A DNA stretch of 63,404 nucleotides, filler included, from Sluysia triapertura (Eukaryota), in the NCBI GenBank assembly GCA_046118255.1. It is 5 parts of 5 records of this genome, joined end to end, with 100 filler letters (N's around TTAATTAATTAA, not from the genome) between each part and the next. Parts side by side here need not be neighbours in the genome. Positions count along the whole stretch, not along the records: positions 52,302 to 63,404 come from JBJNIA010188809.1; 4 more parts are not named here. One strand, given 5' to 3'. The translations under genes were made by a program, and so were the position numbers. The notes beneath the pieces were generated by a model. The model saw nothing but the letters and a program-made list of their open reading frames with translations. It searched no databases and was not told the DNA's origin. How positions within the stretch are numbered: position 1 is the stretch's first letter; every line of letters starts with the position of its first letter. Below are positions 3,001 to 60,310 of this stretch, piece by piece.

Positions 3001-3049
3001 ATCAGATTTGTTTATAATTTCAGATTTAACATTTTATGGCAAACTAAAA

Positions 3050-3490: not shown

Positions 3491-3651
3491 GACAAAGAGT
3501 ATTTACGTACTGTTATTTTTGCTATAAATAAATGTTGTGTTTTGACTAATTTTTAAGTAAACATAATGTTTACAATTTTATTTGTAAATTAGTCTTTATA
3601 TCTAATATTGTATTGCATTGCAATTTATATTCACCAAAATAAAAAAATAAC

Positions 3652-14931: not shown

Positions 14932-15980
14932 ATGGTCAGTTTAAAAATTAATCAAATCCGATGCCAACATTTAGAAAATCACCCAGTTCAGTTGCAAGAA
15001 ATTTATCATGATTTTATACGAATTAAATATAAAGATTTTGCTATTATTATAAGTAAAGTTCTAATTCATTTTGTCTACTATACTCCTTTAGAAAGCTATA
15101 TGAATTTACCAGAGCTCATTGTTGAAGCTATAGTTGATGTGTTTCGTGTAAGCGATGAAATGACGCAAGTGTATCGATACCTGTTGACTGTGAAAGGTAA
15201 ATTGAAAATTTTATATAACCAATTTGAATAGAAAAATCTAATGCATTCAAGTGCACTTTATCAAAGCTCCAACGTTTTGTGAATCCTGACATGAGTATTA
15301 GATTCGGTGAAGATTTCCAAGCTATTATTTTAGATTTACGTACGGACAAGTGCGATTTGAATGTCGAGGATGATTCCAGTGAAATGCCACGTTGCAAATC
15401 ATGTAAATACAAAGACATCGATGTAAAACTTCATTTAAGTAAATATGTTAATAAATGTAATTATCAAATGATGATAACGCATCATGATAAAGATGATGTA
15501 TACCTACTGTTATGTAACGAGTTTAGTTCTAAAGAGTTTTTAATTTACATATCTGAACTTAATTTTAACGTAAAAAAGCCAAAAAGATTTAAAAAGATTT
15601 CGAAGTCACTATCCAGAAATGTTGGATGTGCCTTAAATGCTGATTTTAAAACCAATTTATTAAATGAATTTGTGCAGACTTATTGTATGAGAGATTGTGA
15701 TGACAATTATGCAATCCAATTCATGCTGACGAGAACGACTGTAGTATCACCAAGTTTAAAAAATTTTGAAATTGGATATACTAAGTCTATACAATCTCAA
15801 GATATTAAACATGAGAATAAGAGTGAAGTTGAGGAAAACAAGGAAAAAGGATCGTATCTCTCTGCTGATACGTCATTTGATGTAAATAATGAATTTAAAT
15901 TTGTGTTATTTAGTTTCGGTCGTATTCTTCGTGTATGGTCGTTCGAGAGTAGTGTAAAGATTATAGTGTACCAATTATAG
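14932..15980 (+). CDS. Orphan two-exon gene, ~337 aa
   Basis: A 35-nt GT-AG intron (15197-15231) joins ORF 14932 and ORF 15279 in frame (..LTVKEKSNAF..); no family recognised. Confidence 0.65.
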
Positions 15981-17947
15981 TAAAACTTTCTGCATTATTT
16001 TCTATAGCCATACTTACAATAGAATTCGATTTTGGGATGGAGAATCTGGATGGTATTTTGCTACAACGTTTGTTCATGATAACTCTAACGGATTGATAAT
16101 AGATACATTTAAGACTTGTATTAATAAAACCTTAGCTTGTTATTACATTGACTTTTATTTTCAAAGTATTGATTTAAAACTTTTTAAGTGCCTTAAGCAC
16201 ATATCTTATAACAATAAATCAACGTATGATATAGATAAAGTAAAGACGATAAAATTTATTCGAAAAAAGAAAACCCCTACGCCCATAGTTGTTTATTATT
16301 AATTTATTTCAAGTGGAAAGTTAATTAATTATTAATTCACTCTATGTATCAAGTTAATCAAAGTTTAAGGAATTAAGCTTTTAAGTTACCGCTGTTAAGA
16401 ATTAACATTTTAGTATACGGTTGTCTTAAGCAAGATTTAGTAAGAAAAAGAAGTTTATACATTTAAGAATATTTTCTTCACGTAGAATTTTTTCTAGAAA
16501 TAAAACCCTGAAGCAACATCTTCTGCGTAACTAAATCTTTGACTTCAAGCGGACCCAAAAGATTATTTAAATCATATTTGCTTAAGTTTAAACAATTAAG
16601 AGAAAAATACCAGCACATCTTTAGCTTTTTTATATCTGAAAATATTGATTAAGTTATCGAATAATTATATAGTTGATTTATATTATATAACAATAATAGT
16701 AATAATAACAATAATAATCATAATGTGGTGACCAACCCAATAATTCAAACTTTTATAACATAATAAAACATCAAATTCACATTCAATAACGAAAATCATC
16801 AAATATCTACAAAAATTAATTCAAAATATTACAAACTTTATTATTACCTTCTCAAAGCATTTTTAATTCATAACTTTATAACATTAAAATTACATTCACG
16901 TTTAGACCATCAACGCACATTAAATTTTACTTAAAACATTTCAACCTATAATTCATAATATCAAATTACAATTACATTTAAAACCATCAATTTACAATTT
17001 GAAGTTCATTCAGAATATTATAATCCATAAGCTTACAACATCCAAACTTCACCTTCAGTCAAAACCATCAATCTATAATCTATAATTATCTAATAACATT
17101 AAAAGTACAATCACACCTTAAACTATCCAATTCTCATTTTAAAGGAATTCAAAACACTTTTAGTTCATAATTTTTAACATTTAATTGATGGCCAACCAAT
17201 TAATCTTAATAAACTCCAAATATATTAAAATCACATAATACGCATTTTTAAATCTATTTAAAACTAATCAAACATATCTAAAATCATATTCTTTAACAAC
17301 ATGTAACAATCTTGTAAAATTCATCACAACCGCTTTTATATCTTATTTCATTTCAGACCAACCAAAATAAACTTTTACTTTTCAAAATACTTCAAGCCTA
17401 CAATCTCATAACAAATAATACCATCAATTTACATTAAGCGATCCATCAAAAATATTTATTCGACACCTCATAACATCCAAACCACAATAACGTCTTAAGC
17501 CATTAAATTACATTAAATACATTAAAAAATCCAAAATATTTATCTCCAACAATTCAATCACAGTCACACTCGAAATTAATCAACAAATATCTCCAAAGTA
17601 AATTAAACACCATAAATCCACAAGTGGTACCATTAAATCTTAATATTCAAACATTACCATAACTCAAAAACACTAAGCAGCATTCAAAAAACATCGTAAA
17701 CATTTACACCTTAATACATCTTCAGCCAGAAACATCATTTCAGTTAAAACATTAGGTTTAATTATGCAAAGTTACTTAAAACCCCAAAAAAGTACTCAAG
17801 ATCTGTATGAAAAAGCGTCAGCACTTAAATCCATAAGGTTGCAAGTTCCTTTCGCTTTTATAATTTAGATATATTAAGAAATATTAAGAAAATCAAAGAA
17901 AGATCGTGTAAAAAATTGATATTTCTCAAGAATTTATGCATTTTTCA

Positions 17948-19335: not shown

Positions 19336-19773
19336 TTATTTGCCTTTATTGCAAACTTTAGTACCAATTGTTACATCAACTATCATCTTAATCGAAAACT
19401 TTACATGTATCCAGATATTGCTGTCTTGGTACAAGTTGTAACACGTCCTTGACCAACACCTTCCACATTTAATATCATTATTCATTAAAAAACGACTAGC
19501 TTCTTCATAGATCCTTCTAAACTCGCTTAAAACAACAGCAGAATACATCTCATAACTGGTCAAATCATCAGCCATTTTTGGTATTTCTTCTATCATCAAA
19601 ATAACATATGTTGTTCCATCTACAATTTCTTTATCTAGTAACTGCGTTAATTCTAACAAATTTTTTGTCATAACATGCTCGCTTTTCATTGTTATTTCCT
19701 CGACATTATCTACTAGCATTTTATCTAATGCAACTGGCCATAGATTGACTTTAAAAATATTTGAAATGATCAT
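19336..19773 (-). CDS. Orphan protein, 145 aa
   Basis: Open ORF with protein-like composition (CGRC motif); 3' end abuts the convergent gene. Confidence 0.55.
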   Translation of the reverse strand: MIISNIFKVNLWPVALDKMLVDNVEEITMKSEHVMTKNLLELTQLLDKEIVDGTTYVILMIEEIPKMADDLTSYEMYSAVVLSEFRRIYEEASRFLMNNDIKCGRCWSRTCYNLYQDSNIWIHVKFSIKMIVDVTIGTKVCNKGK

Positions 19774-20068
19774 ATAAACATTTGAGTTTCGCTCACTAAT
19801 GTAGTCTCTTTGGATGTTTATGAGCTGTTTTATATTTATTATCGAAGTTAAAATTAAAGTTCGATTTATTAAAAAGTGTGATATAATTGCAAATTTTAGT
19901 CTTAATTATTGTTACCGTATTTAAACTGAATTTATCAACTTTACATTGAATCATTGCTTTATTAAATCTATTACAAATATTTTTATACATAATGTAATTA
20001 AAATAACAATTAACACGTAAATAATAATTGATTTACACTGTAAAATTTAAACAGTAACAAATTCTGTT

Positions 20069-20615
20069 TTACGCTTGAACAAGAAAAATACAATCATCAT
20101 AATCTAAAAATAGTTGAAAAAGAGACTCGTAATTGTCAATGATAATTACACGAGTATTTGTAACAACTGGAATTGCATATCCGCCAAATGAAAGATTCAC
20201 TAGAACTCTTTGTTTTCTGATGTCACGAGCAATCCTGTAACATATTGTTATCAAAGAACGGTAGTTGTAACTCATTAAGTCCGTGAGCATACATGCATTG
20301 TTGACCATATTTAAAGCAGTGGCCAGTATCTGACGTACTGTATATACATTGTCAGGTTTTGTAATAACGTGAGTGACAGTTACGTTCCATATTTTTACTG
20401 TTTCTATGAACATACTGGCAATCATCTCCATTTGGAAAAAGTCCCGTGTATTTATCATATGAAGTACAATAAACATCATAATTGTAATTCAATGTATTAT
20501 CAATACTAGTTTCAAATGTTGTACTTTTCGATTCATTTAACAGCATGTTCCTCATTCGGTTCACTTGGTCTGACATAATCTGAGAACTATTTTTCAGGCT
20601 ATAATTTTTCTCCAT
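20069..20615 (-). pseudogene. Orphan gene with one frameshift (cargo of the right arm)
   Basis: Overlapping ORFs 20352-20615 and 20069-20479 directly inward of the right arm. Confidence 0.5.
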
Positions 20616-23600: not shown

Positions 23601-23972
23601 ATTATGTTAGGTAACTTCTACTTTGCATGAATTCTGTTGGTCAAAATGCTTTATTAGTCATCTCCTTGGAATAGTTTGTATACAAACTCCTATTATATCA
23701 GACTAGGAATAATTTCGGTCGATTTATAAGTTCTCGGCTAGTTGCTCAAGATAAATGATGATCAAGAAGATGATCGCATACACAGAGTTTCTGTAACGTA
23801 TCGCAGACATTATTATCATTAAGTCCATAATGTTTTATACATTGTTTTGGATTAGATACGTTGCATATTAATTATAAGTGATTGAGTCTAAAACCAGAGA
23901 ACGAGATTTATAAAATCAAAATACAATTCTGTACCTTAATTGATATATTTAAAGTGGATGTAAGATTGATAT

Positions 23973-24129
23973 TTTTGGGATAAAAAGGCCTAAAGTGCCA
24001 TTTGGTAAAATTGACTACATTAAAATGAAATTGTTAGACGGGATTGATATCTCAGTGGTAGAGCATCGAACTGCGCAGCTAGAGGTCCCGGGTTCGATCC
24101 CCGGTCAGTCCATTTTATGAAGTCTAACA
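23973..24129 (+). mobile_element. tRNA-carrying short element, copy 2, inserted in a gypsy remnant
   Basis: (T)TTTGGGAT...TGTTAGAC-tRNA core-TTTTATGAAGTCTAACA; TSD not resolved. Confidence 0.8.
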
Positions 24130-24905
24130 TTTGGTGATGATCTTGTCTGTTATTAGTTTTATTCTGTAACAATCTACACTCCGGTTGAGTATATCCTTTT
24201 CTATTACAATAATAACATATAATATCATTCTTAAACTGAACAGTTTTTCTAAAATTAGAAAATTTACTCGGACGATAATTATTTTTATAGTTATTTCTCC
24301 AGTCATTATTAAAATTGACCATTATTAAATTTTCTTGGTGGTGTAATGGCTATTCTTCTTTGTGGTGTTAACGATCTTCTGCGTTCATTATTAAAATTTC
24401 TGTTACCACTACCAAATCGATCTCTACTACGGCGTTTATTGGAAAAATCATTTTTGGGTGTCTGAGTATAAATTAGGTGTTTTAATATCATGTCGCTCCA
24501 TTGATTCAATATCACAAACCATAAAACTTGCTTTATATGGAGTAATTGATAATCTAGCTTCCATTTTTGTGGCCTTTGAATATCTTCTAGAGTTGTGGCA
24601 TCAGAAATGAGCAATTCTGATCCAATCGGATCCTTACATCCATCCAAAAATTTTTGCACGATCAATTCATTTCTCTGGTCATGACTAAAATTGGGAAATG
24701 CTTTTAAAGCTAACCGTTTCAAATCAAAAATATATTTTGTAACGGATTCATTTGTTCCTTGTATTCTGTTTCTAAATTTCCTACCATTTGTAAATTGAGT
24801 ATCTTTTGTGACCAGCTGATTTTCAAATTCCATTCCATGCGTTTTTCTTCAGATATATTTAAGTAAGCATCTAAAGCTCTTCCGCGCAAGTGTAATGGAA
24901 ATCTC
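24130..24905 (-). mobile_element. Ty3/gypsy LTR-retrotransposon gag remnant
   Basis: Capsid-like Q..ESV..YI.DL..LA motif and degenerate zinc knuckle CYYCNRKGYTQPEC; frameshifted. Confidence 0.75.
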
Positions 24906-27019: not shown

Positions 27020-27990
27020 ATGCAAAGAACTTAAAAGTAAAATGTAACAGAATAATGCAAGGCAATAATAGAATTGAATGTGACCAACAAATTGAATGGC
27101 TTGTTGAACGAAAATTAGATACATTTAATTTTAGAGAAATGCGACTATATCAATTTATTAAATAGATAAATAATAAAATAATTAGAAGTATTACAAAACC
27201 TAATAGATGAAAATAAAAGACTCATTATTATCGATGATATTCCATTAGATGATGAAGGTTATGATCATAATTATATGTTAATTAACTGTCAATCACTCAG
27301 AGGAAGATGATGGATCAATGTTATTAGTTGATAATCAAGTATTAATTGTAAATAGAAATTTTGCAAGAAAAATGATCAAGCTATTAATGATGAAACAACT
27401 GAATATACACACTGTCGGCAATAAATAATTTGACAACTTGTCTTAAAATATTGAAAACAAATTCATGCTCCAAAAGATCATCGTTTCATTTTACCAATAA
27501 AAATATAAACGAATTGAGTAAAATTAGTTTAATGTATTATCCAACAAATATCCCCCGTCACAATGATGAAAGTCACATCGATACAATCAATACTGCAGAA
27601 AATTATAACGCGTTTAGATCATTACAATGCCCATTCCAGTCCGACGAGTCGGGGGCATGTATTAAATTCGGATCCTCGTGTAAGTACTACTATTCTATTG
27701 ACCAAATTAGTTATATTGGAACTAATATATTTGTTTTCCACGAACATGTTCGGCGTATACAAAGTCTACTAAAAACCATCCTCGATTTCAGCAAAGCAAG
27801 TATTCCAATATGTAAAGAGAATTACAATGAACTCATCGGCGAGACTCAATCATTAGATGCTTAAACCACAGCAATTTTAAAGTAATCTTAATTTTTGATA
27901 TTCATTTAGTACTTAATATTTGTTTTTTGCATAATTCTAGGAGCCTGCAATCTATGAAACTGACGACGTGTTCCCGTGTAAGCATTCTGG
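27020..27990 (+). pseudogene. Degenerate orphan gene inward of the arm
   Basis: 144-aa ORF 27430-27864 with disrupted coding-like flanks. Confidence 0.4.
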
Positions 27991-31846: not shown

Positions 31847-33587
31847 GTTGTAATAAAATTAAGTTTTTCACCACAGTAAGAAGAGTAGGAACAAAATTGA
31901 TACAAGATCAGTCAACTACAGAGTATTGAATAATGGATACTCCAAATGTAACACTCGAGAAAGATCGAATCTTACATACCATTCTTTGAAAGGTACAATA
32001 ATAACAATAATGATAATAATTATCAGTTTAGTCATTTTCATTTCAAAAAGAGAACAGATCACATTTAAATTTCGAAGATAAATTTACTGTACAATCACTT
32101 ATTATTGTCAGATGTTTATCAGGTTATCAGTTGTAAAAAATTGAATTTTCTAAGATAAAATTAAAATGTAATTTTAGAAAATAGAAGAACAATGTCGGCT
32201 ATGAAATAATAAAAATGTTTAATATGATTATGATTAAAATATTAGAGTTTAGGACTACGTATGGGATCTTTTGTGTGTCCAAAGATTCATAATTTCTATT
32301 TGTACCTCTCAGGAGTAAAATATTAATAGGATTATGGAAATGGATATGTCTTAAGACTAATTGAAATTTACAGGGATTATGTCATCTCCCTTAAGAAAAT
32401 ATAGATCCTTTTGTAAGAGTTCTACGCATTGATAGATTGGTGATTTAGTTAGATTTTAGACAACCATGTTTGTTTGAAAGATATATAATATAATAATATA
32501 ATTAATATTTAATAATCTGTTTAATATGGGTAAAACATAATTATGTTTTATAAATAGTATGAGTTTTGTTAAAATCATAATACAATGTTTTGTACAGTTT
32601 GGCATTGTTTTGACTTTAGATTCGAAATTAAAATTAAAGAAAAAACTACGTGCACATTTATACACTAAATTTAAAAGTTGTAATTAATAACAGAATTTTA
32701 TATAATGCCCACTATAATCAAAGTTGCAAAATATTTATCTTTAGCAATGAAGAAATTTTATTACGAAGCTAAGAATAAATAATTAGATAAAACTTGAAAA
32801 GTTAAAAAAATTAAAATTATTTTTTATTTAAAAGTTTGTCTATATCATTGAAAAGAAATAGTACCGAGTTGTATCAGTTATTTCACAGTGGAGATTAGCA
32901 CAAACATCGAATTGTAAAGGAACCAGGTGTATCTATAAAATCGTGTCTATGATCACTGATTCAAATTCAAATTTTGAGCAAGCATTCCAAGTTGCCAAGT
33001 ACTCCCTTTTCATATTTTATACTTTTTAGTTAATAAATCTTTATTTAATAGTTTTGAGCCTTTTTCTAATATTTAAATTTAACTACAACTTGTCAGCGAA
33101 ATAACACATCGCTAAGCTAACAGTTCCTGACGTATTGTGACTCTGATCACTTCGTCAACACTTTCAGCTTCCTCTCAAGCATATTATACTAATCACTGTT
33201 ATCCACGTAGGAGTGTGATAGGAGAATTAGATCGGGACATCCTCTGCATCCAAGCAACGGTGCAGATATTACTCAGGCAGATTTGAAGAAATTAATGATA
33301 TAAAACCGTAATTAATCAAATATTTCGAAAGGGAATCAGAAACTCACCATCGATGTGAGAGAAAGTTATTGAAATGGAAGGTGATTATTTTATTGACTAA
33401 ATATATTTGGAATATATGAATAAATGTAATTTTTATATTTTCCCATTTTTTCAGACTTTCATTCAAACCTGATCACTTATTGATTGCTCAAATTTAACAA
33501 ACAATAAATATAATAAACAGTAAATATCAAATAATTAGATACAATTTAAATGACGTGCATTTATTAAACATCATAAACATTACAAAC

Positions 33588-34559
33588 CTTTGTAAATCCT
33601 CATCATTCGCCACTGTCAAACCCATCTTCAAGGCGCTGTAAGCATCTTTATATCGTTCCCGAACAAACAAAAGAAATGCTTTCACATAGAACCATGCTGC
33701 ATGAAGACCTTCTCCCCATGTGTTATTTGGCGATTTTTCACCACCGCTGGAACTGGTGCCTGGTGACAAGGCAGCTACAGAATCGATTAATGTTTGAGCC
33801 TCATCAAATCGACTAAGTCGAGTCAGAACAATAGCCAAATTAAGAATCACAAACACTCGCAAGGCAGAACAATTGTCTTGGGGCTGACGTTGAGACTGAA
33901 ATGAAATAGATCTTGATAACGATTTTAGAAAAGTTAGCACGGGAATACATCAAAATAACACAAAACTTACCTGTATGTGAAGAGAATATCTAAGCTGGTT
34001 CTCTGCACAGTTCATCTGGTTCATACTCATAGCATATAGACCCAGCAGTGCGTGCAGCACACCAGCACGACGACGACGAACTTTGGCAGCTGCACTAGCT
34101 CCAGCCTGATGAGACCAAAGTAATGCTGAATTCTGTAAATGAGTTGCTGGGTATGGCGACTGTTGATAGAGAAGCCGCAGTGCATTACCAATATCTTGAA
34201 CTGCTTCATATTTTCGACCAGCAACTAGTCGACATTGTGCCGCCCACTCAAGAACACAGAAACGAAGCCCAGTCACAAGAAGAACTTGAGACTGATTATA
34301 TTGAGACATTGGTGCACAAGACAGAATAGAAGACCCGGTTCCTCCAGAATTGGGGGCTGAAACACCAATCTCTTCAGCTAGAAAGACAAGCAGTTTATCC
34401 AATTGTGTTTCTGCTTTTTCTACGTATCGTAGAGCTCGTTCCAGATGCCCAGAAAGCATTGCATGCTGAGCACTCACCATGTATACCAGTACAACTTGCT
34501 GTTCTTGTGAAAACCAGCGAAACTGAACACGATTTTGATTGGGCAATGGCTGACCAGAG
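33588..34559 (-). CDS. MAU2: Cohesin loader subunit MAU2/Scc4, two internal exons (34559-33971, 33895-33588)
   Basis: FRWFSQEQQVVLVYMVS..H.M.SG..E.A..Y.EKA, CRLVAG, LHALLGLYAMSMN and FYVKAF motifs; canonical splice sites (CAG|GTAAGT, tttcag|) keep the frame. Confidence 0.85.
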
Positions 34560-35452
34560 CTAAATTTACCAAAGATAGGTTGCGGTAATCATTGGTAATC
34601 ATGTACATTGTATTTGTGTTTATTTGCAAAAAAATACATTAGAGTATTACAGGTTCCCTCTGGAATTTGGTCAGAATTATATTCAAGCTCAATCAACGAT
34701 GTTAAAGGGTCCATAGATCAGAAATAACATATTCGACTGAGAATAATTGTGAATATTGAGCCTATATTTGAGACGAGAGGTTAACATTTGAAACATGCGT
34801 GAATTCCGTGGAATGAATTTTGAAACTATGATCTTGTAAATTTTAGAAGTTTGGTTATATTTATGCTGTTCTAGTAATTTGTATTCAATAGCATTTATCT
34901 TCGAGTTAAAACTTAGTGTCATAGTTTAGTTTACATAGTGTCATAGATCATAGTTTACATCAGTCTTCTTCAAAGGGAGGCGCGGCCCACCAGGGGTCAC
35001 GAGAAATTTCAAAGTTACAGTAAAGTATTCATAAGAAAATATAATGAGAAAGTATAATTTTAAATAATTTTTAATACAATTATTATTTTATTTTATCAAT
35101 AATAGTATTAGACGACGAAACAGAGACAATATTTGATGTTTTATGCCAGAATTTGTAAAATCGTTATTATTAAATAAGTTTTCATTTTGGGCATTAAAAA
35201 TAATTTACTTTATTATTTTTATTTTAGTCCCTAAAGGTCGCGCGAAAGTGTGAAGACCACTCATTTACATGATATTTCATAAGATAGATGATTTCATTAG
35301 TTTGTATAGTTAGTTCACACTGGATTAAGATAAAGGCTACAGTCAAGTGTTTCTTTTGACTGATAAGAAAATATTCAATAATGTACAATTTTGTTTTAAC
35401 TTCACTAGACGCAAGAATAAACAGGGAACGATCTACCCCACGTGACATTAGA

Positions 35453-39169: not shown

Positions 39170-40085
39170 AGTTATTAAAAGATTCTGTAGTAAAACTATG
39201 TTCAAGTAGACCTGATGAACCGATTATATTTTTAAGAGGATATTTTCCCAATTTAGAATGCAAACCTGATAACCAAAATAGTAGTGAATTAATAAAATTT
39301 GACGATGAAATAAAAGGTGTTGTACATTTTCACATAATGAGCTATAATGGAAATTATAGAGTTCACATGCAATGTTGATGATTGTGGCAGTGTTTGTCAT
39401 TCCTCGAAACATCAAAATACAAAAGATCGACGAGGGGCTGTAAGTGATGAAGTAACTACTGAAGAGGATGTATCCATCTTACGTAAAAAAAGTTGTACCT
39501 AAAGATTACATTACGATGGGTGCATTATCAAAAGTAATTGAAAAGAATGTTTTATTTGCATATTTGAATGAAAAAGAAAGAAGTGATATATTTGATGCTA
39601 TGTTTCCAGTACATAAAAAAGAAGGTGATATTATTATTGAGCAAAGTGAGAATGGTGATAACTTTTACATTATTTATCATGGTGAAGTTCACGTTTTCGT
39701 AAATGACGAATACGTCAGTGTCATTAGTGAAGCTGGTAGCTTTGGTGATTTGGCATTAATATACAGTACACCACGTGATACAACTATGAAAGCGTTAACA
39801 GATGTAAAGTTATGGGGTATGGATCGACACTCGTATCGACGAATTTTGTTGGGAAAATTGTATACAGAGTTTCAATCCTAGAGGAATTCGACAAATGGGA
39901 ACAATGTATTGCGGCAGCTACTTTAGAACCTATAAGTTTTAAAAATGGAGATTATGTGTTGAAGCAAGGAGAACCTGGGGAATATTTCTTTATTATTATT
40001 AAGGTTGCAGCTAAAGTCTTTCAGAAACCATCTGATTCTGAATCTGAAAAAGAAGTTGGCATTTTAGGTGCTTCAGATTATTTCG
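39170..40085 (+). pseudogene. PRKAR1: PKA type I regulatory subunit, frameshifted and truncated copy
   Basis: LLKDSVVKLCSSRPDEP (D/D domain), RRGAVS pseudosubstrate, [14 protein letters not shown] cassette and second CNB domain up to SDYF; frameshifts near 39475 and 39865. Confidence 0.85.
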
Positions 40086-40547
40086 AACCAAACGAAGAAG
40101 AAATTGCTTATTCCCATCATCAAGGAATTGTCTTTAATTCATTAAGCTCGGATATATGTTATAAAATGGCTCTTTGCCCATATACAACAATGAAAGATGG
40201 AAGATGTACAAGATTTGGCCTACAAGTGTAAATACCTACATTCCATCAATGAATTAGATGATATTGATGTCGACCCAACAGTCCGAGATGATCACTACAA
40301 CAGAATAACACACTTGATTGCAGATGTCAGTACTAAAGAGGATGAGGCCACAACCTACAGTTCTACAATGCCACGATTAGGCTTGGATCTGCTCCATAAT
40401 AACAAAGTAACTATTCATTGTGATTACGTAAAAACCGATTTAATTTCATTTGTTTATTTAGACAGTGAAACATGGTCCCCAGCAAGTCGAGTCCAAAATT
40501 TAATTGCTGATAATATAAATATTCTTAACTGTAGTATAAAAAATTAA
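40086..40547 (+). CDS. Unrelated orphan coding sequence fused to the PKA RI copy
   Basis: The reading frame continues past SDYF into non-PKA sequence, then into the 116-aa ORF 40197-40547. Confidence 0.4.
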
Positions 40548-41458
40548 TTCTTCTTGTTGTACTATTCATTGTTATTTGTTTATAAGTCTAAAATATTATA
40601 TTTGACAATAATAATAACTAAGTATACATTTAACTTTAAAATTAATAATAATAAGAAGTTAAAAATAATTAAATTTTTAATTAACTTAATTATACCTAAT
40701 AACCATAAACATAAACCTTTACAAAATCCCTGTAAAAGGTTACTTCTTCGTATTTCTCATCGTTTTATCCTATCGCTTATCCCATCATTACAATTTATCA
40801 TAATCCCACATCTCAATTCCTCAATAATGATCACCTTATTCTGTCATTCTGAGGCTTTTTGTATTCAAAACAACTAAAAACGATAAAATTTTATACATTT
40901 TTATAATTCGAAATAAATTTTTTTGTAATCTTTATTTCCTTTTTGTTCTACAAAATAAAATCATGTATTTTAGTTTTAAAAGACAAAAAAATAATTTTTT
41001 TAATAAACAATTATAATATAAAATATAAAGTTAATAAAACCTATAGATTTTATTCTAAATTTAATAATCATCATCAACAGATAATTTGACGATTGTAATG
41101 AATTTGATGATTGTAACAACAAATCAGGATTACCGTCTATCAAATCAGCAATTTAATACGAATAATGTCTGTTTCGAATAGTGAAATTTTCAGTAGCAAG
41201 AAAAATAATTATGAACATAAGTCAATGTTATTTATAAAGTGTCTAATAGTTCCAAACAAAGTGGATCCTTTGTTACATTTACATATTATTAGTTTCGAAA
41301 ATGTCAACTTTATTGTATCGATATGGAATGTTCTTTATAGAAGAATTGAGAATTCTGAATATGTTATTGTTGAATATGTTATTTCTGGTATATTGTGACA
41401 GATCGACATAACAACTTGTGCCTTATGTTTTCGTGATATCTGATAGACCATTTCTTTT

Positions 41459-41909
41459 TGTTAGACTTCATAAAATGGACTGATCAGGATTCGAACCCGG
41501 GACCTCTCGCTGAGCAGTTCAATGATGAAAAACATGTATTAATATAATTGTCTCTTCTCTTTTTAGAAAAGGAAGGTCTTCTTGTATTCAGGTGCAATTT
41601 TCTTGCAGGACATGGTCACGGTATGCGTTGTTCGAGAACTCCACAGCAAGTCATACGAGAGTCTTGATTTTGGTCTTGTGGAAGCCAAGTGTCTTGAGAA
41701 GCCTATCGTTCTCGGGATCCCATCACTCCAAGGCTCCAACGGCAAATGTATCCAGAGACATCTTGCACTCTAGTTGTTCCTGCAGTTTATCATTGAAATC
41801 AGCATACTTCGCAGTAGTGGTGTTTCGGGCTATCTCTACCCACTGAGCTATCAGCCCCATCTAACAAGTTTGTTTGATTATAGTCAATTACACAATCATT
41901 ATCCCAACA
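41459..41909 (-). mobile_element. tRNA-carrying short element, copy 3, interrupted by a 309-bp insertion
   Basis: TGTTAGAC...ATCCCAACA ends, flanked by TTTT on both sides. Confidence 0.8.
41525..41833 (-). mobile_element. 5'-truncated RLE-type non-LTR retrotransposon 3' end (NeSL/Utopia-like)
   Basis: Minus-strand frame AKYADFNDKLQEQLECKMSLDTFAVGALE*WDPENDRLLKTLGF...AYRDHV matches the K.KY...VGALG.WDP.N..LL C-terminal RLE motif; short 3' UTR; GC-richer than the flanks. Confidence 0.7.
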
Positions 41910-44638: not shown

Positions 44639-47099
44639 CTAAATCTTTGCTTCGGTAGGGATTTTATAGTTGAAACTATAAAAATTAAAATGGTAAAAAC
44701 AAAATAGTAAAAATTAATAGTAAAAACAAAATAAATTCTTTAACAATTTATATTAATCACTTAATAAGGTACAATTGAGATTATATATATAAAATGAAAT
44801 AAGTAGATTACGTAGAATTAATTTTAATTCTCGAAATAATGATTCATCAATGATTTTACGTGAAATCTATTATAAGATTTCGGAAATGATGATAGAAAGT
44901 TAATTTACGTTTATTTTTCGAGGATATAATAAACTAACATAATAAACTACCGCATTTTTTTGTTTAAGGAGAAATTCAGTAAAAATTTAATTTTCTTAGT
45001 AGGAATTTTCTTTAGTCTTCAGAAGTTTGGCTCCTGTTTTGCTTCGACAAAAAGTATTTATAAGAATTGGTCAACAAAATTTGTTTTAACAGAAAAATTG
45101 CGTTTTGTTAAATTTTAAAACAAAATATTTATTTTATTTATTAAAACAAAAATGACTTAAAAATATTTAAATGTAAGAATTGTGTAGAATAAAAGGAAAA
45201 ACTTATTGTGAGTTCACCGGCGTACTGGACTTACCTGTTAGGGCCAGACGTTGGATTTTTGGAATAAAGATTGGATTTTAACGTAAAATGAATGGAAGTT
45301 ATATAAATTTTATGTTAATTGCCTAGCTATCAAAGAAAACACCGAATAATTAGTATTTTAATGAGGTTCTAAACCGAACCATAGATTTTAACTATAATGA
45401 ATTTGATCAGGTTCTGAAACTGAACCTTTTGAATTAATTCTTTTAAAGTTGATGAACCTGTAGAATTTACTAAAAGACTAAATAAAATTAAAATCAAAAT
45501 AATTTTTATTAGATAAAAAAATATATACAATTATAATAATAAATAAAAATGGTTGACAGGGATTAATTTAAAATTAATTAATCCTAACTTTATATTTTAA
45601 TAATATAATAAATCGCGTGAGAAGTTGACGTTGATTCAAAGAATACGGATAATGTCAAAAATTAGCAACCGAGTTTTAAAACGCAGATTGAAAAACGATA
45701 ACGTTTAACTGATGTTTTTATTTGCGTCTGTAGGCTTTCAATTTTATTAATTATATAGCAAAGAAATGACCTTGATGTTACAATAATTTAAACAATAGAA
45801 ATTTAATAATAAATATTATATTCCCTTGACTAATTGTTCATTTTATATTAAATTAAATATTAAAAATTAATTAAATATTAAAAATATTCAAAAATACTCA
45901 CTTATTTGTTTCTACAAATTTATCCATATAATTAAAACATTTATTTGAACATAAATTAAATACAGATTAAATATTTAGCCTGAATAAACTTTAGAGTTTA
46001 TTATAAATTTTTATAAACTTTAGCCTGACATAAATATAAATTTAATTATAATATTAAAGTTTTAATTAATAAAATTACTTACATTAGTTTAAACCCAAAA
46101 TTAATTTTTAAATCCAAAATTATTAGACCAAAATTAAAATTATAAATCAATAAAAATTATATAATACAAAATTTAATCAATAACAATAATACGAAATGTT
46201 CAATAAAATATTTGGTAATGTTGATTTTAATTGAATGTTTATGTTTAGGTTTTGATCTTGTTTTAAGAAATTTTCTAAGTTTAGAAAAGGATTATTCTTT
46301 AATTTATTCAATAGGTAGTTTAAATTATCTTTGACAAATAATTCACAATTTGAAATGACTTTATAAAATACGTTAAACAAGATATAAAATAATTTAACTA
46401 CAAAATATTTATTATAAAATTGACGATTTATACTTAGTATTTAGACATTTACTTCTGCATAAATCCATTAGAGTACAATCTGTTTCGTTATCTAAAAAAA
46501 TTTAGAAAAATGATAATTATTATTTAAAATTACATTAAATATTACTTTATTGGATTTTACATTAAGATCATTGATTGAGACTTGTCGAAACATGGTGTTT
46601 ATACTTTTATAAAGTTCAATGATTTTGCTGTCACTCATAGTATGTACATATTTACATCTATTGCCATACTTTAAGAAAACTCCTGATTCGTTTAAAGAAA
46701 AAGGACTTAAGGCGATGTCACTGTATTGAAGAGAAAAGATATCAATTTTGTAATTTTTTTGTGAAGAATTAATTTACATTTATTGTCAGTGACATCGAAT
46801 GGTTTGATCATTTTAAAATCTTTATTCTTTGTATTTAAAAAAATTGATCAGAGTACTTGTCTTTGTTATGATCTAGGATCGAACTATTAAACACTTTATA
46901 ATGTTTAAATAAGTTGTTAAAATAAATATTTTTATAAAACTTTAAATAATAAATAAACGGTAGCCTAACTAAAGTTTTATCATGATCTTGTTTATGTACT
47001 AAGTAACTCACCGATAGTTTCGTTACGTCTTTATGATCGGCTTGATAGTGTACGTTGCGGCTCGTAGGTAGTTTGACCAAACCTTTTTCTTCTTATCGT

Positions 47100-49063: not shown

Positions 49064-50827
49064 ATGCGTATTTATTCTTTTTATATTTTATTACAGTTTT
49101 ATTGTCTTCTCATGCTAGTTACAGATATTTGTATTAGATGCGTTAAAGAACAAAGTCCAAAAACTATGCGATTTGATAGACTTATGAAAAAATCGATTAT
49201 GATTAATGACAACTGTAACAAACGGAAGATAGCAAATAAAATTGATAATTCATTTACATATAAATTAAACAGAAGACAAGATATTATGCATTATTTTCGA
49301 AACCGTCTTTTGGATGATATTCAAACATTTGATTTAAATGACCAAAGCCTAGTTATAGAGTGCTGTAATTATTTATCTTTTATGATATGATCATAGGAGT
49401 AGTTGAGTAATATAAAATAATATTATTTTTAAAAGACGCAATAACTACTTTGGATAGTGAAGTTCAAAATTTAAAGGCCCATTGTAAAACTTTGATTTAT
49501 GATAATAGAACATTAAAAGATAAATTAAAAGAATTAGAAAAAATTTTGGAAAGCAAAAAAGCTGGTTTAATAGCATTAGATGAAAATATTTTATATTATA
49601 CTTTTATGATTGATTTATTTAAATTAGATGGTCAAAAGCAAATATCTGATGTCGAATTTGGAATTTTGAATCAATGTATTTATGAAAAATTTTGGTTAAA
49701 AACACTTCTATTATTCCTTTCTTGAATCACTTTATCAATCTGATGTCAATTGACTTTATAAATGAAATAATTGATTTTACAAATAAAGTTTTGCTGAAAC
49801 TGTCATCAGAATTGGACAATAAAGATATTAATTATCAAAGAACAATTTTTTTAATGTTAGTTTCAAAAACTTGTTTAGATCACAATTTATATAAAGATGC
49901 AATATATTTTGTAACGAAGCTCTCAACTATACTAGAAAGATTATTTGTGATGAAGCAAAATGTTTATTGAGTTTAGGTTTAATACATTTGAAATCAAATA
50001 ATACCGATCATTCACTTGATGCATTTAACGAAGCAATGGAATTATTAAATAGAAATTGTTCAAATGAAATTTATCAAAAACTCATTTTAGCTGAACACTA
50101 TTTTCAATTAGGTCATCTTTTATCAAATACTTCTTTGAAGGAAAACAGTGTAAAGTATTTTGAAATTGGAGTTACAGTTTGTACTCATGCTACACAAGAT
50201 GAAGAAAAATTAACCAATGCACTGATAGAATTGGCTATGTTATGTAATGAAAATGATTTTATTAATGATGCAGTATTTGTTTGCGAAAAATTAATGAAAT
50301 TCTTTCATTTTAAATTATATAATAAAGAAACAGAAAGCTATAAATTGAAAACACTTTATCATATAGCTTTGAGTGCAGAACAAAATGTGGGAAATTCAAA
50401 TAAATTGCTAAATATCGAAGTACCAAGTGTCGTTGAATTACCTAAATCACTTGAAAAAACTATTATTGAATTAATTATTATATTTTGTAAAAGTGAATTT
50501 TTTATTGCAGCTGAAGTTTTATGTAAGTGGCTTAAAAAAGCGAAAGATGAAAATGAGGTTAAGAAATTATCAAATACAAATATCACTATTCGTCTTTCTA
50601 ATCCTAGTGCTAATTTGAAAAACAAAATCGATCAAACAAAACCAGAAATATTAACAGACAAAATGATTTTGTTTAAACCATTAACTAAAAAGCATTCAAA
50701 GAATATTAAGCAATTACCAATAAAATTTACGAGTTTGTTTAAATCTAATAAATATTTAAATATATCATCACATAGTGATAAATATATTTATTTTAAGAAA
50801 CTGTATAAAAATGTTAAAATAAAATAA
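49064..50827 (+). pseudogene. Highly divergent kinesin light chain-like gene (coiled coil + TPR-like), two apparent frameshifts
   Basis: LDSEVQNLKAHCKTLIYDNRTLKDKL...LIALDENILYYTFMIDLFKLD matches the KLC heptad ([26 protein letters not shown]...LEEEKKHLEFMNQLKKYD); intron 49365-49435 restores the frame; downstream helical TPR-like ORFs. Confidence 0.65.
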
Positions 50828-51815
50828 AATTGTAAATATTTTATTGATAAATAACAACAGTATATTTTTGAATAAATAAATCTGATTGTTGTTATTTGTT
50901 TATATAATTCTTTAATATATTATTCTTAATATATGATTCTGTTTTTATAACTGTCAATTTATCTCTACCTCCTTTTATTAATTATATATGCTTAAGTAAA
51001 TAAAGTAATAATAATATTTTATAATGTGATACCCATTTTTAAATATAGAGTACAAAAATACATAAAAACAAAATAAGTCTGCACTTTAAAAATGCCAAAA
51101 AGTCTTATGATAAAATAAAGTTAATTAAAAAGTTTGCAGAAAAACATTTCATAAGTATTAAAAAGCCTATAGAAAAGCCTTTAAATAACAAGATAAAAAT
51201 AAGAAACATGTAACAAAAATCAAAAAGGTGGCTATGAATTGATTGCACTTAATTAGGACACAAAAACATCAGTTTAAACGCAAATGCTAATTAAACATGA
51301 ATAAATTCGTTAAAAATGAATGAAGTCGATTTCTAGCTTACATCTATATACTAAATGTATGGAACGATATTTTGCTGTCATAAAATACAGAAATTATTAC
51401 AATAGTTGGTTATTCATTTCTGCTGTGTTTCTTGAAAGTATTTCTTTAGTAATCTGACTAAACTTTATTACTGACTGACTTATTTGTGGTTATGTTGGGA
51501 TTGTCTAACTGTGATTAGGAGACGGGTAAGAGACATAGAATTACGAAATGAAGGAAGACTTGATACGAAGTGATAGATTGAACATTATAAACGTTCAGAA
51601 TAAGAATCATGTAAGTAAAAGCATTTATAATAAGGTTAGTAGCTGAAGAATACCTTAGAGTTTCAAAGACATGTGTAAGGTGTGGAAGCTTGAAATGGAC
51701 TTTAAAATCCTTTGAAGGTATTAGAGTACCTTTGAGCTGTGAACATTGAGATCATTTGAGACATTATTAACCTTTAGGTATTCTTTAGCTATTTAGGGTT
51801 CTTCGAATAACCTTA

Positions 51816-51970
51816 TGTTAGACTTCATAAAATGGACTGACCGGGGATCGAACCCGGGACCTCTCGCTGCGTAGTTCGATGCTCTACCGCTGAGCTCTCA
51901 GCCCCATCTAACAATTTTAGATTATTATAGTTCATTATACCAAATGGCACTTTAGGCCTGCATCCCAACA
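51816..51970 (-). mobile_element. tRNA-carrying short element, copy 4 (complete, 155 bp)
   Basis: TGTTAGAC...ATCCCAACA flanked by a CTTA 4-bp TSD. Confidence 0.9.
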
Positions 51971-53418: not shown

Positions 53419-54078
53419 TTAAATAAAACAATTTAACTTTAATTTAATAACTTTTAACAAAATAGGCTTAAGGCCTGTCAAAATTAACAAATAGAAAACA
53501 GTAACAAAGTTTGATATTTTATTAGAAATGAAACATAACAAGTGCAGAACGGATATAAACGTACTGAATAATAAAACAGCTCTATCCGTAAATGAACATG
53601 ATCGTTTTGGATTAGTAAAACTAGTCGTATAACACCAAAATTGTTGCTGAACGCTATAATGTTTGTAATCAAATGATGAAACATCGCATTTATTTTTCGG
53701 TGGAATTTCTACACCAAAGACACGACAAAAATTTTTCGACCAAATTAAATCACTTTGAGAAACATCTATATCATCTCTAGTTAACAATTTCTTCGCGTTA
53801 ATCCAATCCATACATTTTGTAATAATTGTTAAACACTTTCGATAATAATCAATGGTAGTTGTTAAATGAAACTGATTTTCTTTCATATAAATTTTAATTT
53901 CTTTAGATACTACTTCAATATCTGATAATAATTTCATATTAGCTTTAATTTTACTAAAATTCCAATTAGCTATATATATTAGTTCATCATATGATGGTTT
54001 TAATTTCAAATAATAACGCGATAAGTAATAAATCCAGATTTTTTCATTACTTGATACTTCTACATTAACTGTTGCCAT
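53419..54078 (-). CDS. Orphan protein (219-aa ORF, hydrophobic C-terminus); likely last exon of the family B arm cargo
   Basis: Long ORF inward of arm 55009; coding-like disrupted sequence upstream to ~54560. Confidence 0.5.
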   Translation of the reverse strand: MATVNVEVSSNEKIWIYYLSRYYLKLKPSYDELIYIANWNFSKIKANMKLLSDIEVVSKEIKIYMKENQFHLTTTIDYYRKCLTIITKCMDWINAKKLLTRDDIDVSQSDLIWSKNFCRVFGVEIPPKNKCDVSSFDYKHYSVQQQFWCYTTSFTNPKRSCSFTDRAVLLFSTFISVLHLLCFISNKISNFVTVFYLLILTGLKPILLKVIKLKLNCFI

Positions 54079-54559
54079 TAATGTTTAATATTGATTTTTT
54101 TATTATCAAATTTTTATTAATTATTATAATTTTTTTATTATTTCTTTACATAATTTCGACAAGAAATTATGGGATAACAAAGGAGGACAGGCAAAGTACT
54201 GATATAATAGTCTGTACATACTTGATTTGTAGTAAATTGTGTTATGACATTCTACATGAATAGTATTTCTGTAGATTGTGATGTTAATTGTTTTGTCGTG
54301 TTGAAACTGAGACTGCTCAATACCTCATTCTTCGATTCCGATATCGACTCATTTTTAACATCATTATCAGGAAGTATATGTTTTAAACTTCATTGTAGAT
54401 GGTAAATTGAATAGATTATTTGACTATAAGCTATTAGAAACATAATCTTTCAAATCTTCTTTCTCAGTAACCAATAACGTAATATTATCCATAGAAAGTA
54501 TCGGCATATATCTTTTGCGACCATAATATTCGAATAATTGACTTTCCAGTTGAAACGTT

Positions 54560-55009
54560 GGAGTTATTAAAAGAACAAATTTTATAACAGATATTAAATG
54601 TAAACTTTATAGATTAACACATGGATGAATATGTAAGAAAAGTGGAAAAAACGAAAGAATAAAAAGACAGGTTAATAACAAGAATTAAAAAATAATAATA
54701 ACAATAACGTAGTTATTATGTTTATTAATACTGGCATTGTTGGTGTTGATATGAAATTTTATTATGAGATTTATTATAAAAGTTATTATCCGATAATCAT
54801 ATATTACTACAATAATGACAATAATTATTATACATGTATATTGTTTAATACGATTTGAATTGTAATAATAATAACTGTAGTTCATGATAATTATGTGCAA
54901 TGATTATGTTTGTTTTTCGAATGAGGTTAGTAATTTGTTTAATAATCTGTGTACATGTGAAATGTTTTAATGTGATGAAGTGTGATGAATTTTGTGCGAT
55001 TTCCCTACA
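54560..55009 (-). mobile_element. Family B arm
   Basis: Ends GCGATTTCCCTACA (reverse complement TGTAGGGAAATCGC); homologous to the 48773 arm. Confidence 0.65.
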
Positions 55010-56683
55010 GTCATTATTATTTGAATCAACGTTGCTAAATATACATTAAAATCGTCACGAACAAACTTAAGATCTCTGATAAATAACATTACAAAATTAT
55101 CAAAAACGCGTTTTTATTTTATATTGAATGTTACAAAAATGGATAACCAAACATAGTATTTATTAACGACTTTATTATAAAATGATATTAAAATATACGA
55201 ATGTACAATAGTTAAATGCATGCTACATAATTTTAAAAATGACTTTACTTTATCTTCTTCAATTCTTCATGCATAAAACATATATTTTAGGTTGCAACAA
55301 ACATAGTTGTTACTACGATCTCAATGGATTAATAATGCATATATTGTATTGAGCACAGTATTCAAATTACTTGTATTAATACTGTCAACTACGATTATAA
55401 CATAGATTGACATTCATTATGATAGTAACTTTATATAACTTATATCTTAACCTAAATGTTATATGCAGACCCAAATTGATAAATATTATTGGTTATTTCA
55501 AGCAAATTGATGATTATAAATATGAATAACTTATAAATTTGTAACATACTCGTTAGTTCTTTTTTAAATTGTGCATAAGGTACTATTGAAATTTCAAGAA
55601 GCATAATAAATCTTCAACTCGCATTTTTATCAGTTTTTGTAGTTTATAATTAAGGTTACATTATGAATTAATTTGTGATTAATATTCCTTAATTAATTTT
55701 GTAATTGAAACTTTGTTATATCTTCTATCTTCTATATTCATTAAAACCTCTTAAAAGTTTTTATTCGCATCACTCGGCACTGGGAAAATAACTCCCATAA
55801 TAAAATAAATTTTTAAAATTAAATTACAAACCTTGCATATAAAAGGATAATTAATAGATATAAACATAAATATTTACCTCAATGTAATTGAAATAAGGTT
55901 TTCATCATAAAATTTTTATTGTTATTCTCAAAACTTTGTAAACCTTCCAATTCCGTTGATAGATTCTTGATCAATTTCTGCAACATTTATGTTTTTGATG
56001 TAAGAACTTAAACCATTCTTTGAGATTCATCCGACATATCATCAGATTTACTATAATTTTTATTTTTTAACTGACATGCTAATTAAATCTAATTATTTCT
56101 TGGTTTAAAATCGCAAATTCTTGATACACGTTTTATAAAGATTTTACTACTTTATAAGCTTTATTCATTCTCTAGAAAATCTATGCCAACTTCCATAATA
56201 TCTCTAAAATATTGAATATCCATTTACTAATAATACTATCAAACCATGTAATACCTAGCACGATAAATTTCGAAAATTCTTTTAAAAAATTTTTCAACAA
56301 ATTGTGCATTATAATTAATTCTTGAGGAATGTATCATCTAAAGAATAAGTTTTATTAAATATTCCAGTAGGATATAAAGTTTGAGATCCAAATAATAAAA
56401 CATTATCAAAGAAAAAATTTCAAGAATGCTTTCTTGATTGTTGGTAATTCTAATATCTTTAAAAATTGATTCGACATTATTGAGTGGAAAATATGAGCAG
56501 TTAATAAAATGAATTAAACGTTTTTTTACAATAAACAAATGACATAAAAATATAATTAGAAGAAATAATATCTTTAAGTAATTGATTTAATTGATTAAAT
56601 TAGTTGGTCGTGGTTCTTTTTCCATATACTAAATTACTGAATAAAAATTATTTAAAAATAATGTGCCATTTTTCATTAAATTT

Positions 56684-57982
56684 TTATAACAGTTTTATAG
56701 TGGTGGTGTTAGATTTTAAAATTTTCATTATAAATTCATTTAAATTTACTAGCATTATTTTCATTCTTATGTTAGGACAATTTCTTATTATCTGATATTC
56801 TTTACAAATTGTTAATTTATTGTTGTTACGTTCGTGCTTAAGGCACTTCAAATTCTTTATACTAAGCTGTTGAGGGCGATAGAAATAATAAAAAGTTACA
56901 GTAATTTTATTAACATAAAATTTGAATACATCTACAAATGTTTTCATACAAAATAAGGTTTTGTTAAAAGGAAGAACCTTATGTGGATAAGATCTTCTTC
57001 CGTGCAAGTAAACTCCGTTACACTGTTTTCCGTACGTACCACAACAATCCGACCATAATACCACACGATAGACTGCTATTGCTACATCTTCTCCAACATC
57101 ACATAACTCTTTACTCTGATATCTTTTAAAGTTATTCAGTTTATCTAATAATAAAAAGTGAAGTAAACAATGATCAATTGTCGGCAATAATGCGACACGA
57201 TAAGCTACTACTAATACGTCTTTTACAACATTACATAAACCTTTACTATCATATCTTTTATAATTATTCAGTTCATCTAATAATAAAAAGTGAAGCAAAC
57301 AATGATCAAGTGTCGGCGATAATGCGACACGATAAACTACTATTACTAAGTCTCCTCGATTCTGGACATCGTCGATTACACGGACTAATTCTGAAACAGT
57401 TTTAATTCGAAAAATCATGTACAGAAAAACTACACCAGCTGAGTAAATGTCGATTATAAAATTGTATGATGAACTGTTACCACGAGAACTTGCAACTTCA
57501 TGAGCCATGTGGACATCGGTACCAACACCTCTCGACATCTTGCCAAGTGATTGGTTTAAATTGATGCATTCTGTAACCAAACCAAAATCTCCTATTTTCA
57601 ATTTAACTTTTTCAATTACATCGTTATCGTATGAAAAGACAATTCGTTTTGTATTGGAACTCCTTGATTTTTTAAATTTATCATCGAAACATCGAACTGG
57701 TTTAAATTGATCCATGTTGTAACGAGTTAATTTCTTATTTTCTGAAACCGTAAGTTGATTCATTTCAGTCAAATTGTTAACAGAAGAATGATTAAATTCA
57801 TGATTTTGAGACTGTGTCTTGGAAATTAAATTTGGATTTCTTGTTGCTAATGAAATGGTACCAACTTTAACACTTCCAGAATTAGTATTAATTTCATTTG
57901 TAAATTCCATGAATTTCGAATAACGTTCAACACAAAAATGATCACAAAAGTTGACGGATAACAAGCGATTAAAAATTTTCAA
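56684..57982 (-). CDS. Pseudokinase: eIF2-alpha-kinase-like C-lobe, 44-aa tandem repeats and a Polo-box-like segment
   Basis: KIGDFGLVT, GVGT..MAHE, YN..IDIYSAGVVFLYM and TVSEL motifs; no Gly-loop, VAIK or HRD; 132-bp internal duplication. Confidence 0.7.
   Translation of the reverse strand: MKIFNRLLSVNFCDHFCVERYSKFMEFTNEINTNSGSVKVGTISLATRNPNLISKTQSQNHEFNHSSVNNLTEMNQLTVSENKKLTRYNMDQFKPVRCFDDKFKKSRSSNTKRIVFSYDNDVIEKVKLKIGDFGLVTECINLNQSLGKMSRGVGTDVHMAHEVASSRGNSSSYNFIIDIYSAGVVFLYMIFRIKTVSELVRVIDDVQNRGDLVIVVYRVALSPTLDHCLLHFLLLDELNNYKRYDSKGLCNVVKDVLVVAYRVALLPTIDHCLLHFLLLDKLNNFKRYQSKELCDVGEDVAIAVYRVVLWSDCCGTYGKQCNGVYLHGRRSYPHKVLPFNKTLFCMKTFVDVFKFYVNKITVTFYYFYRPQQLSIKNLKCLKHERNNNKLTICKEYQIIRNCPNIRMKIMLVNLNEFIMKILKSNTTTIKLL
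57040..57352 (-). repeat. 132-bp in-frame tandem repeat (~2.3 copies)
   Basis: YRVAL.PT.DHCLLHFLLLD.LNN.KRY repeated. Confidence 0.9.
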
Positions 57983-57999
57983 TTTGAAAACTCAAAGTC

Positions 58000-58311
58000 A
58001 GGTGAATTGATATCGAGGAATGAATTTTTAAAATTTTTTGTTATTGAAACAAATTGAAAATAATAATAAAAATAATAAAGTAATAAAAATTAATAATAGT
58101 AAAATAAAATAATAATAAAATAAAATAATAATAAAATAAAATAATAATAATAATAAAATCAATAATAGGCGTTTATGATTTGTCGGGGATAAAGTATGAT
58201 AATGCAGATATTGCAGATGTGTTTTATTTCGATGTAATTTTTATTTGTGATGAGGTTTATGTGGTTGATGGTGAATGAGATGTATGTTATATATTGAAGC
58301 GTGACACCACA
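58000..58311 (-). mobile_element. Family B-related arm
   Basis: Ends GCGTGACACCACA (reverse complement TGTGGTGTCACGC); skewed arm shares TTATCATA(A)CTTT(T)ATC with the 48773 arm; AAT/AAAAT tract precedes the kinase ORF. Confidence 0.55.
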
Positions 58312-59199: not shown

Positions 59200-60310
59200 A
59201 TGTTATCTGGTACCACCCAATCGAAATGTAGATTTGTGTAATTGCTTGTGGACACTTCGAGCTCTTTTATGACGGGATATTGTATTGAAGAAGAAGTTAT
59301 CTATTCTGTTTAGATGTATGATGACAAGTGTTGAGTTACTTCCGAGCTCTTCAAGCTCATCAGCGGAATGGTTATATTTGCATCTTGCAACATATCGTGA
59401 ACATTCTCCAGTTTGTATGGTTATATAGCGCCGTCTTATAATGTTTATTGAAAACTGCTAAATTGTACAACTTTGTGCTTAGAGGTCTATTACTAACATA
59501 GAGTGACTTTGAATGACTAAATTCTGAATTCTTGTTTAGAGTTTTGGATCGTGAAGCATGGGTTTTACTTGTCATGACGAATAAATCAATATCTATTATT
59601 AAGTATGATGATAGTAATAGATTAATAAGCATCAATATAATTTGATTCTCATTATTCGTTATAAATCTGTCACAATTTTCATAACGCTGTATTAATTTAT
59701 ACTTGATCATATAAGATTCATTCAATGTCGAATTCATTTTTACATGAAAGATATAAGTCGATATAAACTTTTAAAGCTAAAGTTTTGTTCGGGTATGAAA
59801 TTGACACATACTTCATCCTCTTTATCATTTGAAGAATTTTTATTAATCGCCAACGCTGTGCGAAACCCATATGTTTCGTATGATTAATTGTTTAACATCT
59901 TAAGACATAAGAATACATCAACTCCAAACTTTGATTCATTATATTTTATTAACTTGTATAGCTAAATTGTAAGTTATCCTCTATGTGAGAGTCGGACACA
60001 TTAACTCCGCTGACATATTTGAATGGCACATATAATGACGAATTCTCGGGCAAACTAAACCTATTTTTTAAGGCTTCATTTTTACGAACAATAAAAGCAT
60101 CTTTTGGTTGAACGAAATCTCAATTTGAATAATTGATCTTAAACATTTTGATAAGTAACATGAACTTGATCTTAATTTTATGTAGTTATAAGAGAATAAA
60201 CTTTCTTTTGGATTATATAGAGATCTGTACCAGTTTGGACAAAGTGTCAGATCATCACTATTTATCGCAACAAAATCGTACGATATATCATCTTCTATTT
60301 TCAACATCAC
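59200..60310 (-). pseudogene. Degenerate orphan gene inward of arm 61587
   Basis: ORFs 60068-60310 and 59372-59737 on the same strand, with disrupted coding-like sequence between. Confidence 0.4.

Follow-up and report, generated by a model that had tools for sequence, protein, structure and literature searches.

A 432-codon open frame in Sluysia triapertura joins an incomplete eIF2-alpha-kinase fragment to a heavily repeated sequence family: a candidate decaying chimera

The stretch of Sluysia triapertura DNA analyzed here (63,404 nucleotides at its full length; hereafter the window) is AT-rich eukaryotic DNA with 14-41% GC per kb, mostly 20-30%, and carries exons of a cohesin loader, a C2 protein, a PapD-like protein and another kinase. 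The two long Cohesin_load exons at 33527-34588 (minus strand) have 34-41% GC, well over the window background, and a 310-codon TPR-like ORF is found at 49895-50824 (plus strand). Four mutually similar CCCH zinc-finger remnants at 20226-20351 (minus; Pfam zf-CCCH_UNK, E 1.3e-9), 27403-27861 (plus), 46495-46773 (minus) and 59206-59457 (minus) are apparently members of an expanded, decaying RNA-binding family. At 39200-40230 (plus), a sequence that resembles a PKA regulatory subunit and contains two cNMP-binding domains is frameshifted, has no apparent introns and looks like a processed pseudogene. A TCP-1/cpn60-like fragment is located at 19339-19905 (minus; E 2e-6), and a gag-like remnant recognized by eye, with a zinc-knuckle-like stretch, two frames and no Pfam match at E 0.01, at 24020-24848 (minus). 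A dispersed repeat of about 150 bp, the copies of which are 80-89% alike and by eye tRNA-derived and SINE-like, occurs at 6826-6966, 23971-24138, 41456-41524 with 41834-41893, and 51807-51959. The frame studied here reads on the minus strand from 57982 to a stop at 56684. Downstream of it, 55750-56600 and 53419-54606 (both minus) hold apparently frameshifted coding stretches and a 221-codon ORF without a family. The frame itself consists of four segments, and a relative of the last one is found elsewhere in the window:

56684..57991, minus strand: whole open frame, 435 codons from stop to stop.
57614..57982, minus strand: residues 1-123, an in-frame segment without kinase N-lobe or HRD, present in a few copies (contig depth, profile scan).
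57347..57613, minus strand: residues 124-212, an eIF2-alpha-kinase fragment comprising beta8-DFG, activation segment, helix F and helix G (Pfam, PDB, profile).
57055..57353, minus strand: tandem array with 2.3 copies of a 132-bp (44-codon) unit, 84% matches (repeat search).
56687..57054, minus strand: residues 311-432, tail belonging to a heavily repeated family (summed depth, homology to the ORF at 15967-16299).
16099..16224, plus strand: diverged tail relative that shares 17 of 42 residues, within a broken ORF chain at 14839-16299.

An uninterrupted ORF of 432 codons had been described in the initial annotation without its strand, and this description was correct: with stops occurring locally at 0.083 per codon, the chance of a frame this long at the local composition is 4e-17, indicating that the frame descends from coding DNA. 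The first methionine is residue 25 (ATG at 57910), which would yield a product of 408 amino acids if used. Residues 1-123 would stay open by chance with a probability of 2e-5, and therefore this segment too was once coding. Its Pfam matches were all below the curated cut-offs and no kinase profile matched it. A relationship of residues 1-123 to the CCCH-finger remnant at 59.2-59.8 kb was considered and rejected, as 90 of 2000 shuffles did as well and the DNA comparison stayed at the level of shuffles.

The eIF2-alpha kinases GCN2, PERK, PKR and HRI have in common the DFG, the GT... and the Y...D.YS.G..F..M....T..E of subdomains VII-X. Residues 124-195 of the frame matched Pfam Pkinase with E 5.3e-8, and the DFG (residue 132), DIYSAG (residue 178) and an eIF2-alpha-kinase-like T.SE in helix G are kept, in line with the DFG and the GCN2/PERK-type subdomains VIII-X noted previously; the APE position reads AHE. 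The seven best PDB matches were GCN2, PERK or kinases without a name, with like alignments, and BRAF followed close behind the top matches (20.9 vs 24.4 bits). Among 1.84 billion representatives, 13 proteins matched at 30-39% identity, in every case within residues 91-229, and the best of them was an annelid dsRBD kinase; an eIF2-alpha-kinase name was attached to four of the 10 clusters looked up, and a dsRBD was found in five of 10 proteins. Together, the data make a sound case that the kinase piece belongs to the eIF2-alpha kinase family, the assignment being made at family level only.

To set the bounds of this piece, we used an eIF2-alpha-kinase profile of 22 kinase domains drawn from proteins matching the frame. 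The 67-bit score of this profile is circular because the profile was built from matches to the same ORF, and its bounds alone were used: residues 124-212 correspond to columns 159-244, i.e. 86 of 291 columns, less than one third of the domain. In contrast to active eIF2-alpha kinases, the frame showed, in motif and profile scans, no Gly loop, VAIK lysine, helix C, helix E, HRD or sensor domain, and the remaining kinase parts were also absent from the 5.4 kb upstream and the 56 kb downstream within the window, searched in six frames with stops read as X. The only HRD kinase motif of the window, at 3895, is in another gene; the sole other kinase match is a separate exon at 3.6-3.9 kb, and the next best match scored 1.4 bits. 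The lack of an N-lobe and of HRD that had been proposed for the ORF thus extends to any frame of the 5.4 kb upstream. At the other end, detectable kinase homology stops at residue 212, ahead of helix H, with no significant subdomain XI match in 57055..57353. The label "eIF2-alpha-kinase C-lobe" can therefore be kept in part: the sequence is a catalytically incomplete eIF2-alpha-kinase piece, not a whole C-lobe.

The start of the tandem array (57353) adjoins the end of kinase homology (57347). The array accounts for the DHCLLHFLLLD repeats seen earlier, and YRVVLW is the beginning of its third, partial copy of the 44-residue unit. The stretch is contained in one public run, of which we aligned 274 contigs on 56600-58040 at 80% likeness. 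Summed contig depth is not copy number and was read only as "many" versus "a few". It started at 18 in the first bin, rose to 404-5747 across 56698-57334, where the tail has about 400-5750 (56698-57089), and fell to 34-164 across 57335-58040, which includes residues 1-123 (34-164). The kinase boundary, the array boundary and the depth step all coincide near 57350. A second contig of 173 nt, 88% alike, crosses the same kinase-repeat junction, extending 105 letters to one side and 60 to the other, with 19 differences in these 165 letters, indicating that the fusion is not brand new. Other contigs display further arrangements of the array, and there are three skip joints. These measure 42, 60 and 72 nt, each a multiple of three, the sequence between them being unseen. 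In one diverged contig the first ATG is altered and the sequence near the N-terminus is 17 nt shorter and out of frame.

The tail has no Pfam, PDB, PHROG or Atlas family, and relatives of its repeated family are not known beyond this genome. Residues 350-391 of the frame aligned with 16099-16224, in the homologous ORF at 15967-16299, with a score of 86 that was reached by none of 3000 shuffles and was the best non-self score among 422 window ORFs. The chain to which this ORF belongs (14839-16299, plus strand) consists of three broken ORFs (130, 250 and 111 aa) with no Pfam match above cut-off and no PHROG; no kinase piece was found in it next to the tail relative, and it may show the repeat family without a kinase piece. 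The coinciding boundaries together with the kinase-free relative of the tail indicate that the parts of the chimera have separate origins. A further proposal, that the frame is element-borne, agrees with the heavily repeated C-terminal half; the rest of it was not substantiated, as searches nearby turned up neither a terminal inverted repeat nor a transposase nor a viral gene. Among the 25 longest of 357 inverted-repeat pairs there were only AT-rich matches, and comparison of 28 window ORFs with PHROGs gave a generic kinase match only and nothing viral nearby.

Divergence between copies looked neutral in the small samples at hand, an outcome that the initial annotation had named as speaking against its own model. 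The two full repeat units differ with pN 0.129 and pS 0.127 (pN/pS about 1), an estimate based on 17 differences only, 13.5 nonsynonymous and 3.5 synonymous. Of 102 variants between contigs and window, 40 were listed, 30 of those in the C-terminal half, and among these 30 six were synonymous versus 8.7 expected at random. All 14 listed variants with at least 85% of depth differing from the window were nonsynonymous, and the six synonymous variants were all among the 16 at intermediate share (Fisher p 0.019, with the 85% cut set post hoc). This pattern suggests that the repeat family is constrained in this frame and that the present copy drifted at conserved sites; alternatively, the excess of amino acid changes could reflect diversifying selection. 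At residue 161, 35 of 47.6 depth carries the canonical APE proline. Stops in this frame were found in none of the 40 listed variants; a random change gives a stop 3% of the time here, and none in 40 has a probability of 0.29 under neutrality. At six sites the window's own base is missing from the aligned contigs, and hence some of the differences may reflect another individual or an assembly error.

Searches of larger collections added little to this picture. A set of 5.8 billion proteins contained no homologue, whether near (E 0.01), longer (residues 110-300, E 0.1) or shorter (E 1), and single-protein scans of viral contigs, metagenome contigs and phage records found no relative. In the ESM Atlas, residues 110-300 led to generic kinase clusters (0.95) and residues 255-400 only to short proteins without a name (0.80). 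The AlphaFold single-sequence model reached a pLDDT of 35. Modeling of residues 95-321 with 12 kinase relatives (a 13-row alignment) gave pLDDT 46 and pTM 0.29, weak evidence in which the C-lobe was left unclosed; a fold search with this low-confidence model, uninformative for that reason, had no match at E 0.001, Polo-box folds included.

The initial annotation had assigned the C-terminus by eye to a duplicated Polo-cap/Polo-box-like segment. No Polo match was found for residues 205-432 in PDB or Pfam at E 10. Of 117 loci with PLK motifs, 49 extended far enough in frame to either side and were used; the 68 short ones were dropped. Profiles of these 49 regions and of 22 PLK1-like Polo-cap/PB1 regions scored 1.3 and 0.7 bits, values equalled by 112 and 287 of 3000 shuffles, respectively, and a profile of 30 whole Polo-box domains scored -1.0 bits, equalled by 570 of 2000 shuffles; all 27 held-out PLKs, in contrast, scored 46-161 bits. 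When half of the residues of PLKs were randomized 14% dropped to 0.7 bits or less, and with 60-70% randomized 37-58% did so, indicating that only a very decayed Polo remnant could escape the profiles. The by-eye likeness of 14 residues is slightly above shuffles: it scored 21 against PLKs, which 23 of 3000 shuffles reached, as compared with 58-71 for the 49 real PLK 14-mers, and one of 42,688 14-mers elsewhere in the window, in unrelated sequence, scored higher. The best pairwise PLK score was reached by 53 of 200 shuffles, and L039, alone of the 49 PLKs, gave a collinear alignment of 43 columns (z 2.4). The tryptophan of the first PB1 strand is present in this copy as W310, whereas the other two repeat units have Ser or Leu at this position; among the contigs, 400 of 414 summed depth have another base at the first position of the W310 codon, and for S311 the window is contradicted by 414 of 414. 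The Polo-like motif therefore depends on changes that are almost confined to this copy. A PLK kinase profile matches no further than residue 190, whereas the eIF2-alpha-kinase fit runs through helix G. Two more by-eye PLK likenesses downstream were absent from the profile tests. The C-terminus thus gave no Polo-box hit, a result that the initial annotation had itself named as refuting, and the Polo partner is not supported.

Chimeric unprocessed pseudogenes and captured gene fragments are a recognized class. The frame resembles them in having an internal gene fragment fused to a repeat, several copies, neutral-looking divergence and broken fragments nearby; it differs from them in that the copy is still without stop or frameshift and no carrier element was found. 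We favor, with a probability of roughly 55%, the explanation that the frame is a decaying, relaxed chimeric copy formed by DNA-level duplication, likely without a working protein. DNA-level duplication or non-allelic recombination would have placed an internal eIF2-alpha-kinase piece next to a repeat-family member with the reading frame preserved; at least one round of copying of the fused unit would have followed, and the present copy would have drifted afterwards. The descent of all parts from coding DNA, together with the small share of random changes that make stops, would explain why the frame is still open. If translated, the kinase piece would be unable to bind ATP or to catalyze, and it is predicted not to fold as a lobe. 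An origin by shuffling, one of the two that had been put forward, fits a chimeric ORF with an eIF2-alpha-kinase-derived piece. We counted in favor of decay the other broken gene pieces of the window (PKA regulatory subunit, CCCH-finger, TCP-1 and gag-like), and against it the single frame of 435 codons without stop shared by all four segments, the open N-terminal codons, the three skips in multiples of three and the diverged second contig with the junction.

Other explanations account for part of these observations. The DFG-helix G piece could be an exon of an ordinary spliced eIF2-alpha kinase with intron as its flanking in-frame sequence, for which two candidate acceptors (57846 and 57741) and, right after GDL, a GTAAT at 57346 could be invoked, and sequence past 63404 lies outside the window; however, the 5.4 kb upstream contain no kinase exon and the 56 kb downstream none for subdomain XI, introns would not remain open for 123 and 220 codons (2e-5 and 5e-9), and AHE stands in place of APE, so that we consider this model very improbable. 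We also considered that there is no foreign fusion at residue 212 and that the 44-residue unit represents a duplicated and very diverged form of the helix H-subdomain XI-helix I end belonging to the kinase itself; the repeat family would then descend from the 3' part of such a kinase gene, e.g. as 5'-truncated copies. MAFFT sets R244 of KRY, in the first repeat copy, on the near-invariant subdomain XI arginine, 65 residues past the helix F aspartate versus 60 in P0008, and depth is greatest towards the 3' end. Yet a profile of 22 kinase tails scored -1.2 bits against the repeat, a value that 610 of 3000 shuffles also attained, depth is low over the kinase core, the tail relative at 16.1 kb is without a kinase upstream, and the model did not close the C-lobe; this origin of the unit is in our view unlikely. 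The model of the initial annotation, a kinase C-lobe fused to a Polo-cap/Polo-box and acting as a PK2-like dominant negative, can draw on the few shuffles that reach the 14-mer score, on the L039 alignment and on the finding that a remnant with at least 60% of its residues replaced is often missed by profiles. Set against the profile scores near zero, the missing Pfam and PDB matches, the nearly private W310 and S311 and the absence of helix E, it is the one we hold to be extremely unlikely.

A decaying chimera has also to be weighed against a working protein, i.e. an expressed member of a small, fast-evolving subfamily in which the helix F-helix G module docks eIF2-alpha and shields it from its kinases. 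One long frame over all four segments and the second contig with the same junction would fit such a subfamily, as would the end of the fragment at helix G, which is reported to recognize eIF2-alpha in PKR (PMC6467004). On the other hand, pN/pS is about 1 in the repeats, APE is lost in this copy, the first ATG is not kept in one relative, no confident fold was obtained, and PK2, despite its whole C-lobe, is reported in the same paper not to bind eIF2-alpha (PMC6467004). PK2, as described in a preprint (bioRxiv 10.1101/2025.02.05.636571), is like the frame in being kinase-derived, in missing the N-lobe and in being unable to catalyze. It consists of a 22-residue extension and a folded C-lobe (residues 23-210), carries MFG in place of DFG, and binds subdomain III-IV of HRI via helix E, beta8 and the extension. 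Its C-lobe is thus complete (~188 residues) with helix E, unlike the ~88 kinase residues without helix E found here; a PK2-type extension would be homologous to kinase subdomain I, and residues 1-123 give no kinase-profile match; and DFG is kept in the frame. Furthermore, PK2 is viral, whereas the frame has spliced genes of animal type around it, no viral gene was found, and 20 viral loci match at only 24-38%. Judged by this account of PK2, a dominant-negative action of the PK2 type is unsupported for a fragment with neither a complete C-lobe nor helix E. We regard membership in a fast-evolving expressed subfamily as doubtful and a functional decoy family as quite unlikely, and we see only a slim chance that an animal genome has built a small expressed family of eIF2-alpha-kinase decoys of its own, in which the substrate-docking helix F-helix G piece, joined to the tandem 44-residue unit and the tail from an amplified, lineage-specific family, dampens the integrated stress response by shielding eIF2-alpha.

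If such a family were real, the host would encode its own equivalent of viral inhibitors, acting by a mechanism different from that of PK2, and an expressed and conserved frame would represent a host-made kinase-fragment decoy of the stress response, of which the literature listings and abstracts searched contained no description. The analysis also illustrates that a motif recognized by eye can depend on substitutions that are almost confined to a single copy. A large uncharacterized repeat family with coding signs exists in this genome. As a decaying chimera, the frame would be of minor importance otherwise, apart from the evidence it gives that gene fragments are scattered and fused in this genome.
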